A stretch of DNA of 64,000 nucleotides, taken from the NCBI RefSeq assembly GCF_030013205.1, contig NZ_CP122648.1. The stretch is one strand, 5' to 3'. The notes beneath the pieces are model-generated. The model ran no database searches and had not been told where the DNA came from. It saw only the letters and a list, made by a program, of their open reading frames with translations. Each line of letters begins with the position of its first letter. Position 1 is the stretch's first letter. A program made the translations under genes and the position numbers. This document shows positions 17,353 through 58,748 of this stretch, one piece after another. This DNA is from Escherichia coli (lineage in GTDB: Bacteria; Pseudomonadota; Gammaproteobacteria; Enterobacterales; Enterobacteriaceae).

Positions 17353-17390
17353 TGCTAACGTCAGATTGTTGACAAAGTGCGCGTAGTTCA

Positions 17391-17490
17391 TGCCGGATGC
17401 GGCGTGAACGCCTTATCCGGCCTACAAAAATCTTGCCAATTCAATATATTGCAGGACCACGTAGGCCTGATAAGCGTAGCGCATCAGGCA
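17391..17490. repeat. REP / BIME-type extragenic palindromic repeats between fepA and entD
   Basis: tgccggatgcggcgtgaacgccttatccggcctac and inverted gtaggcctgataagcgtagcgcatcaggca are typical REP units. Confidence 0.7.
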
Positions 17491-17526
17491 GTTTTGCGTT
17501 TGTCATCAGTCTCTAATATGGTCGAC

Positions 17527-18147
17527 ATGAAAACTACGCATACCGCCCTCCCCTTTGCCGGACATACGCTGCATTTTGTTAAGTTCGATCCGGCGAGTTT
17601 TTGTGAGCAGGATTTACTCTGGCTGCCACACTACGCGCAACTGCAACACGCTGGACGTAAACGTAAAACAGAGCATTTAGCCGGACGGATCGCTGCAGTT
17701 TATGCGCTGCGGGAATATGGCTATAAATGTGTGCCCGCAATCGGCGAGCTACGCCAACCTGTGTGGCCTGCGGGGGTATACGGCAGCATTAGTCACTGTG
17801 GGACTACGGCATTAGCCGTGGTATCTCGTCAACCAATTGGCATTGATATCGAAGAGATTTTCTCTGTACAAACCGCAAGAGAATTGACAAACAACATTAT
17901 TACACCAGCAGAACACGAGCGACTCGCAGAATGCGGTTTAACCTTTTCTCTGGCGCTGACACTGGCATTTTCCGCCAAAGAGAGCGCATTTAAGGCATCG
18001 GAGAGACAAACTGATGCAGGATTTCTGGATTATCAGATAATTAGCTTGAATAAACAGCAGATCATCATTCGACTAGAGGATGAGCAGTTTGCTGTGCACT
18101 GGCAGATAAAAGAAAAGATAGTCATAACGCTGTGCCAACACGATTAA
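17527..18147 (+). CDS. entD: phosphopantetheinyl transferase EntD
   Basis: ORF 17377..18147; start chosen at MKTTHTALPFAGHTLHFVKF (206 aa); the upstream part of the ORF lies inside the REP repeats; alternative start MVDM at 17518. Confidence 0.9.
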   Translation: MKTTHTALPFAGHTLHFVKFDPASFCEQDLLWLPHYAQLQHAGRKRKTEHLAGRIAAVYALREYGYKCVPAIGELRQPVWPAGVYGSISHCGTTALAVVSRQPIGIDIEEIFSVQTARELTNNIITPAEHERLAECGLTFSLALTLAFSAKESAFKASERQTDAGFLDYQIISLNKQQIIIRLEDEQFAVHWQIKEKIVITLCQHD

Positions 18148-18268
18148 TTGACAATACCCGGAGCGATTCGCCCGCAGCCAATGCTGACTGCGGGCGAAAG
18201 TGTAAAGCAGGTGCCTTACTACTCTGACCTGACAACCGGATATGCGGGGATTACTCCCCGCACAACGG

Positions 18269-18421
18269 CTACTTCTTCGGTTCGTAAGCGAGAACAGCCT
18301 TAAACTCAATATTACGTTCCTTCACCGTAAACTCACACAGCGAGTCTCCGACCAGAAGCGTAAATCCCAGCACCGTTAAACACAGCACTATGACTGCCAC
18401 AAGGGCATATTTCGTCAGCAT
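18269..18421 (-). CDS. hokE: Hok-family type I toxin (HokE-like), copy 1
   Basis: 50-aa product [50 protein letters not shown]. Confidence 0.88.
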
Positions 18422-18566
18422 GTTTATATTGCCTCCATGCGAAGAAGGGACTACCATCCGAGTTGTTGAGGTTCGGAGTGGCAGCCCCAGGATTGATAGA
18501 AATATCTCCTGGGGCTTCATCTTTCCAGACCTCAGAGTTAACCTGAAACCGGAAAGCTTCAGGCAC
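18333..18566 (-). CDS. mok-like overlapping reading frame (modulator of killing), copy 1
   Basis: 77-codon [35 protein letters not shown]… starting upstream of hok and ending inside it in a different frame, as expected for mok. Confidence 0.5.
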
Positions 18567-18600
18567 CCGCTGTTATCTTACCCTTCCTTAGCAAAATAAC
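18530..18600 (+). ncRNA. candidate Sok antisense RNA, copy 1 (position approximate)
   Basis: Inferred from hok/sok architecture only: antisense to the mok translation-initiation region; no promoter or terminator mapped. Confidence 0.25.
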
Positions 18601-18771
18601 TGTTTATTTATACAGCAAGTCCTGTTTCGGACTTCTGTTGGCAACACTCGTTATTGCTCGTAAAACGAAATCGCCCGCAGCCATCACTGACCACGGGCGA
18701 AAGTGTAAAGCAGGTGCCTTACCACCCTGACCTGACAACCGGATATGCGGGGATTACTCCCCGCACAACGG

Positions 18772-18924
18772 CTACTTCTTCGGTTCGTAAGCGAGAACAG
18801 CCTTAAACTCAATATTACGTTCCTTCACCGTAAACTCACACAGCGAGTCTCCGACTAGAAGCGTAAATCCCAGTACCGTCAAACACAGCACTATGACTGC
18901 CACAAGGGCATATTTCGTCAGCAT
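18772..18924 (-). CDS. Hok-family type I toxin, copy 2 (identical protein)
   Basis: Same 50-aa Hok sequence; here the upstream mok frame is fused in frame, giving a 98-codon ORF 18772..19068. Confidence 0.8.
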
Positions 18925-19029
18925 GTTTATATTGCCTCCATGCGAAGAAGGGACTACCATCCAAATTGTCTGGTTTGGAGTGGCAGCCCCAGGGTTGATA
19001 GAAATATCTCCTGGGGCTTCATCTTTCCA

Positions 19030-19100
19030 GACCTCAGAGTTAACCTGAAACCGGAAAGCTTCAGGCACCCGCCGTTATCTTACCCTTCTTCAGCAAAATA
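19030..19100 (+). ncRNA. candidate Sok antisense RNA, copy 2 (position approximate)
   Basis: Inferred by analogy with copy 1. Confidence 0.2.
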
Positions 19101-19355
19101 GCTGTTTATTTATACAGTGAGTCCTGTTTCGGACTTCTCACTCCTCATTTGATCAACTGAAGCTGAACCCGTTTTTTTCTGCATGCCTCAATCGTCAAAA
19201 TTCTTCGCCACCAGTCCGCACTGCCATAACTTGTCATATTGCAAAATGTAGCCAATTTGCTTCAGTCACCATCATCAAAAAAAGAAACATTCCAGAACTT
19301 CCGCATCTCGCCCAGTCGCTCCCACTTCTATACTGAATAGAAAACGCCAACATAA

Positions 19356-20483
<1,128 letters not shown>

Positions 20484-58671: not shown

Positions 58672-58748
58672 TGGCGCGCCCTGCAGGATTCGAACCTGCG
58701 GCCCACGACTTAGAAGGTCGTTGCTCTATCCAACTGAGCTAAGGGCGC
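58672..58748 (-). tRNA. argU: tRNA-Arg (anticodon UCU), argU
   Basis: Reverse complement reads GCGCCCTTAGCTCAGTTGGATAGAGCAACGACCTTCTAAGTCGTGGGCCGCAGGTTCGAATCCTGCAGGGCGCGCCA (77 nt, encoded CCA). Confidence 0.95.

Follow-up and report, generated by a model that had tools for sequence, protein, structure and literature searches.

The stretch of Escherichia coli DNA analysed here (64,000 nucleotides, referred to below as the window) carries two closely similar copies of a hok/sok type I toxin locus between entD and ybdK. The original prediction was that this is a tandem duplication in which a one-nucleotide indel has fused an upstream frame, mok, to hok in the second copy, with consequences for the control of the toxin. 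The locus raises the question of what these two copies are, and of whether the long reading frame found in one of them has any part in how its toxin is made. It is highly probable that the region holds two complete paralogous hokE/sokE type I modules in the same orientation, that their number is a common copy-number polymorphism, and that the 98-codon open reading frame (ORF) of copy 2 is not a mok-hok fusion.

Two hokE/sokE units in the entD-ybdK intergenic region

The two units lie head to tail on the minus strand between entD (17527-18147) and ybdK (19365-20483), both of which are annotated on the plus strand, and each is about 470 bp long. Unit 1, the entD-proximal unit (18168-18636), runs from a terminator hairpin to about position -68 of the hok promoter region, and unit 2, the ybdK-proximal unit, occupies 18671-19138. 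These limits are taken from direct repeats, from alignment and from the RefSeq hokE annotation of an identical strain. The repeats 18168-18466 and 18671-18969 share 96% identity at a spacing of 503, while the repeats 18470-18636 and 18972-19138 share 95% identity at a spacing of 502. When the two units are aligned they differ by clustered substitutions and a single 1-nt gap, which lies within such a cluster. Strain CFSAN018748 is 100% identical to the window over this stretch, and RefSeq annotates two 50-aa hokE genes there, without mok. The direct repeats and the two RefSeq genes agree with the predicted tandem duplication, and the absence of IS186 from this locus is confirmed as well, both units being intact and free of insertion sequences.

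The toxin is the same in both units. Copy 1 of hokE (18269-18421, minus strand, stop codon included) and copy 2 (18772-18924, minus strand) both appear in the ORF list and, as had been claimed, encode an identical protein of 50 residues (MLTKYALV...EPKK), which corresponds in each case to RefSeq WP_000956465.1, “toxin HokE”. It is one residue apart from K-12 HokE, with V8 here and A8 in K-12. Both ORFs have the features of the Hok/Gef family, namely a length of about 50 residues, an N-terminal transmembrane helix and a conserved cysteine. The NCBIfam Hok-family and HokA models give E-values of 3e-10 to 4e-13, with scores under their curated cut-offs (49 bits versus 89; 40 versus 73), and membership in HokE therefore rests on identity to the RefSeq protein. 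In both units hokE is preceded by its own GGAGG Shine-Dalgarno sequence. The Tyr46 codon of copy 1 is TAC followed by G (18283-18286), which is the context reported for TadA editing (bioRxiv 10.1101/2025.08.07.668861). Toxicity of HokE has been reported in the same work.

Upstream of each toxin gene lies a structured leader. Despite its name, “sok”, the model RF01794 matches the hok-sense strand, covering the stretch between the mRNA 5′ end and the hok AUG; its consensus opens with a conserved GGGUGC and closes at the hok AUG. It matches the leader of copy 1 (18413-18568, minus strand) over the full model (1-157) at 81.9 bits and that of copy 2 (18916-19070, minus strand) at 81.7 bits, compared to a gathering score of 59, and it also matches K-12 hokE, hokB and hokC. 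These full-length matches give both copies the tac stem, the upstream hairpins and the Sok-target hairpin that characterize a structured hok leader. Judged from the model and by analogy, the hok mRNA would begin at GGGUGCC, which places its 5′ end at 18568 in copy 1, with the tac element at approximately 18559-18568, and at 19070 in copy 2.

Each unit would give rise to a hok mRNA of about 400 nt. In the predicted minimum free energy (MFE) fold of both copies, the GGGUGCC of tac pairs with an fbi-like box, AGGCACC, in the 3′ UTR (18210-18216 in copy 1 and 18713-18719 in copy 2, minus strand), a long-range 5′-3′ interaction that would keep the full-length RNA closed. Both boxes are invariant in the 23 natural units, from 15 genomes, in which leader alleles and reading frames were compared. 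At the 3′ end, copy 1 has a 13-bp GC-rich hairpin (18168-18197, minus strand), located by the direct repeats, a terminator scan and folding, with no U tract after it. The terminator hairpin of copy 2 (18671-18700, minus strand) is followed by TTTCGTTTTA and is the only terminator-like site in the scan.

The missing U tract in copy 1 could suggest that one copy is a duplicate in decay and no longer functional. In keeping with this, chromosomal hok loci are often inactivated, and in some strains an insertion sequence has entered this very locus (IS186 in K-12, IS150 in CRE10 and GMF054); they have also been reported not to mediate post-segregational killing (bioRxiv 10.1101/2025.08.07.668861). 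Decay of one copy is nevertheless very unlikely when set against the rest of the evidence. Both Hok ORFs are intact and identical, both leaders exceed the RF01794 gathering threshold, and tac, fbi, the hok Shine-Dalgarno sequence and the Sok promoter and terminator boxes are conserved in both copies. Both full hok mRNAs are predicted to be far more stably folded than their shuffled counterparts (z-scores of -6.3 and -6.8), and the first and second codon positions of hok are strongly constrained, with a diversity (pi) of 0.009 compared to 0.064 at third positions among the 23 units.

On the plus strand, each unit is predicted to encode a SokE antisense RNA of about 60 nt that would be complementary to leader nt 45-104. 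SokE-1 (18465-18524) was placed by transfer from the K-12 sokE annotation and by folding, and SokE-2 (18968-19026) by folding. The predicted Sok1 begins GUUGAGGUUC, and the predicted Sok2 begins with the 5′ tail GUCUGGUUU; the two differ at three positions and one indel within the first 10 nt and at one position elsewhere. [quoted passage not shown] A putative sokE-1 promoter (TTGCCT-17 nt-TACCAT; 18429-18434 and 18452-18457, plus strand; 8/12 matches) is placed solely from the 5′ end of K-12 sokE and scores below threshold in a sigma-70 promoter scan. That scan gave no site at threshold for hok or sok. By analogy, Sok is probably expressed at both units.

The counterpart of the Sok 5′ tail is a hairpin in the hok leader. 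In copy 1, which carries allele A, this target hairpin spans 18447-18488 (minus strand; mRNA nt 81-122), has an 11-nt loop, ACCUCAACAAC, and holds the variable patch discussed below. It was delimited by a fold of -23.3 kcal/mol, by the whole-mRNA MFE structure and by the diversity peak, and allele comparison places a conserved AUG (18455-18457, minus strand) in its 3′ arm. In copy 2, which carries allele B, alignment and allele folds place the hairpin at 18950-18990 (minus strand); it holds the indel, its loop is one nucleotide shorter, and a G-C pair in the upper stem is swapped for A-U. Fold prediction gives the same shape in eight of eight alleles, at -18 to -26 kcal/mol, the swap in the upper stem included.

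Each unit would make the 50-aa membrane toxin HokE from its own GGAGG Shine-Dalgarno sequence. By analogy with plasmid R1, 3′ processing would open the closed mRNA, and Sok would pair with the leader, its single-stranded 5′ tail meeting the loop of the target hairpin, which would lead to decay. While the repeat, the ORFs, the leader match, the allele distribution and the predicted folds are shown directly, the transcript ends, Sok expression and any use of the conserved AUG are inferred, and the mechanism is put forward by homology with R1.

A two-copy hokE locus is already known, and it is annotated in thousands of RefSeq genomes. A 121-nt junction query across the unit boundary, counted at 80% coverage or more (single-copy loci cover at most 72% of it), found the tandem junction in at least 2,103 of 5,426 complete E. 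coli genomes, O157:H7 among them. In the sampled loci, the entD-ybdK region carries one to three units depending on the strain: one in K-12, O55:H7 DEC5A and others, two in O157:H7, M9, AR_0086 and others, and three in strain 104. Type I loci are known for duplicating in tandem (PMC2887945), and tandem hok “islets” of 2-6 copies formed by local duplication have been described (bioRxiv 10.1101/2025.08.07.668861).

Reading frames upstream of hokE and the place of mok

Copy 1 contains a 77-aa ORF that starts at GTG and is out of frame with hok (18333-18566, minus strand), and copy 2 contains a 98-codon ORF that also starts at GTG and is in frame with hok (18772-19068, minus strand). Both are present in the ORF list as originally reported. 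Their frames differ because of the 1-nt gap within the substitution cluster, and the indel does create the in-frame 98-codon ORF. A further ORF in copy 1, of 83 aa and in the hok frame, starts at ATG 18520 (ATG49 of the leader, minus strand) and had been missed. The interpretation placed on the GTG ORFs was that they are real mok frames, so that the indel fuses mok to hok in copy 2 and yields a 98-aa Mok-Hok protein with altered translational coupling and altered control by Sok. Superficially like mok of plasmid R1, the GTG ORF of the 147-nt leader alleles runs into hok in the +1 frame and stops after 86 nt of it, and leaderless-type initiation exists, so translation from a 5′-proximal GUG is conceivable. 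Even so, an in-frame mok would in itself be nothing abnormal, which speaks against this interpretation: K-12 mokC is in frame with hokC and shares its stop codon, while mokB is out of frame with hokB.

The position of the GTG argues against this interpretation. In both copies (18566 and 19068) it corresponds to hok mRNA nt 3-5 and to RF01794 positions 3-5, inside the conserved GGGUGC tac element, which K-12 hokB and hokC carry as well, and it has no Shine-Dalgarno sequence. The curated AUGs of K-12 mokC and mokB are found at RF01794 positions 97-99 and 95-97, respectively, 8-10 nt past a GAGG Shine-Dalgarno sequence (84-87) and about 95 nt downstream of this GTG. In addition, the 5′ ends of K-12 sokC and sokB overlap the first 9 and 11 nt of mokC and mokB, while the GTG lies outside leader nt 45-104, the Sok-complementary segment, and so is not within the reach of Sok. 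The GUG at mRNA nt 3-5 is part of the tac element and very probably no translation start, and the identification of the copy-1 GTG ORF as mok fails on this ground.

The canonical mok position in hokE is without a start. Model positions 84-87 of hokE read GGGG, and positions 95-99 contain neither AUG nor GUG nor UUG; a start lying 8-10 nt after GAGG within the 5′ arm of the target hairpin, where the Sok 5′ end would overlap it, is not found. Since the locus has every other hok/sok feature tested, this absence is a peculiarity of the hokE subfamily. The chromosomal hok loci hokA-E and their mok frames were reportedly first described by Pedersen and Gerdes in 1999.

Comparison of natural alleles bears on the same point. 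Among the 23 units, the leader that precedes the hok AUG measures 146, 147 or 148 nt, and the length variation is confined to one hairpin loop. The 146-nt alleles place the GTG ORF in the hok frame and the 147-nt alleles place it in the +1 frame, and in all ten 148-nt units it stops before the hok initiation region, which leaves it without the open frame expected of mok. Because its frame varies with leader length, no coding constraint ties the GTG ORF to hok. The 77-aa product itself has no family match in a profile search and is absent from the protein collection.

By its own terms, the original prediction would be refuted if the indel were a sequencing error or if the in-frame arrangement were the common form of the locus. 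Comparison of hokE loci in other genomes found the in-frame allele to be common, which goes against the prediction on the second count. Allele B, the 146-nt in-frame form, occupies the ybdK side in the window and in O157:H7 and the entD side in GN05505, AR_0086, STN0717-11, SK1144 and 446, and is the sole copy in O55:H7 DEC5A. Short allele-specific BLAST queries are permissive, and only exact-match counts (the 99%-or-higher band) were used; on this basis a 41-nt sequence of allele B is matched exactly in 770 complete genomes, relatives of O157:H7 and O55:H7 among them, and an A-family allele in 1,688. Because the identical 41-nt allele recurs in that many complete genomes, the indel cannot be put down to faulty sequencing.

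What was read as a mok-hok fusion is an ORF artefact, produced at a hairpin loop that varies in length. The 98-codon ORF exists in copy 2 because the target-hairpin loop is one nucleotide shorter in allele B, which would bring the GUG at nt 3-5 into the hok frame by chance; it is simply the longest ORF that can be drawn from mRNA nt 3. A true fusion of mok to hok is extremely improbable, and the allele sequences appear to have largely refuted it already. The exact 98-aa product has been deposited in GenBank on 208 contigs as “Hok family toxin”, and O157:H7, O55:H7 and E. fergusonii contribute variants of it. Deposits under this name also include the extended ORFs of 83 and 62 aa, the 62-aa form on 312 contigs. 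In the sampled genomes, RefSeq PGAP calls the 50-aa hokE twice and not the extended ORFs.

Other possible mok starts were considered. ATG49, which opens the 83-aa ORF, was rejected, as that ORF is closed in the 146-nt alleles and its frame varies. UUG 107-109, which would give an R1-like overlap in the +1 frame, was rejected as a general mok start; it is missing from the A alleles.

A single upstream start is retained and open throughout the 23 units: the AUG at nt 111-113 (AUG 112; 18457 in copy 1 and 18960 in copy 2), which begins a 62-codon ORF in frame with hok, 12 codons upstream of it (18269-18457 and 18772-18960, minus strand). The 38 nt from AUG 112 to hok (leader nt 110-147) are nearly invariant, with pi of 0.004 among the 23 units. 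AUG 112 has no clear Shine-Dalgarno sequence and sits in the 3′ arm of the target hairpin. Because the Sok duplex ends 8 nt short of it, bound Sok could block it, and it is the best candidate for a mok-like leader start. It may also go unused, and hokE may have no mok at all; the K-12 annotation gives sokE and hokE and no mokE. As this only conserved upstream AUG is in frame in both copies, 8 nt past the Sok duplex, the same translational control is expected of both. The anatomy of the leaders predicts no difference in translational coupling, contrary to what had been proposed for the indel. The two copies differ in the sequence of the Sok tail and of the target loop, not in expected translational control.

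Loop alleles and the Sok recognition interface

The differences between the two copies are unevenly distributed. Six of the 19 transcribed differences fall within mRNA nt 95-109 (P of about 5e-5 per 15-nt window, or about 0.02 after correction for the scan). Among the 23 units, nt 86-109 form the diversity peak of the whole locus, with pi of 0.194 compared to 0.064 at hok third positions and 0.023 in leader nt 1-79, and far above the segment at nt 110-147 that follows. This variable patch comprises the loop and the 5′ arm of the target hairpin, which pair with the first nucleotides of Sok. The paralogs therefore differ in their antisense recognition element, as the differences cluster in the Sok tail and the target loop.

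These observations raise the possibility that the two units are functionally insulated paralogs, in which selection has concentrated divergence in the Sok 5′ tail and the hok loop. Changes in the stem of the target hairpin keep its structure, as would be expected in that case, and the predicted duplexes of the first 12 nt of Sok are far stronger for cognate pairs (-21.9 and -21.1 kcal/mol) than for cross pairs (-7.8 and -11.5 kcal/mol). Discrimination by a few nucleotides has been shown in Sib/Ibs (PMC2943612) and OrzO/OrzP (PMC3919570). The predicted energies of the full duplexes are closer, at -133.4 and -132.7 kcal/mol for cognate and -114.6 and -120.5 kcal/mol for cross pairs. About 50 nt of near-perfect complementarity is left between non-cognate pairs, and because of this cross-repression by Sok may stay efficient. 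Such insulation of the two units is rather unlikely, although the divergence could, from the sequences, partly insulate each Sok/hok pair.

The distribution of loop alleles can be read in both directions. Of 13 intact multi-copy arrays, 12 have a different loop allele in each of their units, strain 104 having A, D and C′, which favours insulation. The excess of hetero-allelic tandem pairs over random pairing is, however, not significant (P of about 0.1) in genomes that are phylogenetically non-independent, the sample is small (25 genomes), and the same allele diversity is found in single-copy genomes. The loop could merely be the least constrained part of a structured RNA, and the pattern is equally compatible with this. 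It can be suggested only tentatively that the kissing interface, formed by the Sok 5′ tail and the hok loop, has diversified into at least four allele families with the hairpin kept, and that co-resident units are independently regulated, each by its own Sok.

hokE among the type I systems

The closest relative of the two units is the K-12 hokE/sokE locus (b4415/b4835), which shares with them its position between ybdK and entD, its RF01794 leader and the position of sokE. K-12 has one unit with loop allele C (147-nt leader), whereas the window has two, with alleles A (147 nt) and B (146 nt). The statement that K-12 has a single hokE interrupted by IS186 is correct as to the single unit and the presence of IS186B, but the coding sequence of K-12 hokE (607836-607988) is intact. 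IS186B (608007-609351) starts 19 nt past the stop codon and so cuts off the 3′ UTR rather than the coding sequence. It removes the fbi box and the terminator in K-12, while both units of the window are intact and without an insertion sequence.

Compared to hok/sok/mok of plasmid R1, the hokE units have the same toxin family and, by prediction, the same tac-fbi pairing, leader target hairpin and cis-antisense Sok with a single-stranded 5′ tail and terminator hairpin. R1 has a defined mok that is out of frame with hok, with its Shine-Dalgarno sequence GAGG at nt 104-107, the mok AUG at 116-118 and the hok AUG at 174-176 (PMC9841398). The homologous position in hokE reads GGGG and offers no start codon; the only upstream AUG conserved in hokE, unlike R1 mok, shares the hok frame and is located in the 3′ arm of the hairpin. 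The hokE locus is also chromosomal and, in contrast to the R1 plasmid locus, is not expected to mediate post-segregational killing.

In its arrangement the locus resembles the hok “islets”, ibs/sib, ldr/rdl and zorO-orzO/zorP-orzP, which are likewise head-to-tail duplicates within one intergenic region and vary in copy number between strains. In these tandem type I arrays, as in the hokE units, paralogs differ most in the antisense recognition region. Discrimination between paralogs is an experimental result for Sib/Ibs (PMC2943612) and Orz/Zor (PMC3919570), whereas for the hokE units it is a possibility suggested by sequence.

The two-copy locus and its “fusion” ORF are in themselves of little import, since the locus is widely annotated, tandem islets have been published and the over-extended gene call is known. 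They do call for caution in annotation: ORFs of 98, 83 and 62 aa across hok leaders hinge on a loop-length polymorphism and should not be taken for Mok or for Mok-Hok fusions. Also of note are the absence of a start codon at the canonical mok position of hokE and the finding that the most variable segment of the locus is the interface recognized by Sok. If the divergence does insulate the paralogs, Hok/Sok would join the few type I systems for which discrimination between cognate and non-cognate pairs has been demonstrated. If the co-resident units are indeed independently regulated, they would represent natural orthogonal antisense pairs evolving within a single duplicated locus.

Predicted leader pairing and the antisense call

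The hok leader of both tandem hokE/sokE units, copy 1 (18168-18636) and copy 2 (18671-19138), contains a conserved mini-ORF, AUG GAG GCA AUA UAA, on the minus strand at 18424-18438 and 18927-18941. This mini-ORF overlaps the hok Shine-Dalgarno sequence, ends 2 nt upstream of the hok AUG, and is kept in all 23 hokE/sokE units compared from 15 genomes. The leader also contains CUUCUUCG (nt 122-129 from the inferred mRNA 5′ end), which is a perfect complement of CGAAGAAG in the final hok codons. These two segments pair in the predicted minimum free energy (MFE) structures, forming in copy 1 a long-range helix between 18440-18447 and 18271-18278 (minus strand), and copy 2 has equivalents. The predicted CUUCUUCG-CGAAGAAG helix would close the hok coding region.

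On the plus strand, the RefSeq gene caller PGAP annotates in many genomes a “hypothetical protein” of about 89 amino acids across the hok leader (e.g., WP_009008364.1), which corresponds to 18893-19101 and also 18390-18599 of the window. In many others, including CFSAN018748, the strain identical to the window over this stretch, PGAP tags it as carrying a frameshift or an internal stop. Because it lies opposite a structured RNA of variable loop length, this antisense call is probably spurious.

Terminator hairpins and the Tyr46 codon

Differences between copy 1 and copy 2 form a second cluster at the 3′ terminator hairpin (18168-18197 in copy 1 versus 18671-18700 in copy 2, minus strand), where they lie in the loop and the 5′ arm. 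Those in the stem arm are C-to-U and A-to-G changes that preserve pairing by means of G-U wobbles. The hairpin is followed by a U tract in copy 2 only.

A-to-I editing of hokE mRNA by TadA has been reported to recode Tyr46 to Cys, which would permit a Cys29-Cys46 disulfide in HokE (bioRxiv 10.1101/2025.08.07.668861). Both copies in the window agree with the reported TadA context, UACG, in which the Tyr46 codon TAC is followed by G (18283-18286 and 18786-18789, minus strand).

Neighboring features and variation of the array

Upstream, an Rfam match to the ES036 (CssrF) sRNA (17427-17468, plus strand; 42.2 bits versus a gathering score of 37.6) lies within the fepA-entD intergenic region, shortly before the annotated entD start at 17527, and K-12 carries the same match. 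The 256-residue GTG ORF listed as entD (17377-18147) is over-extended and crosses this match. Elsewhere in the window are an Rfam match to IS009 RNA (52745-52944, minus strand; 133.7 bits) and a tRNA gene (58675-58748, minus strand).

In other strains, the array itself varies. E. coli strain 104 (NZ_CP029164.1, 4275900-4278400) has a three-copy hokE array in the entD-ybdK interval, and its three units carry three distinct alleles of the Sok-target hairpin loop (A, D, and C′). IS150 lies within or adjoining the hokE leader in some strains (CRE10, GMF054). In AR_0086, Rb-50, SK1144, and 446, an SDR-family oxidoreductase gene replaces entD as the left neighbor, and the flank of the hokE array is therefore itself polymorphic.
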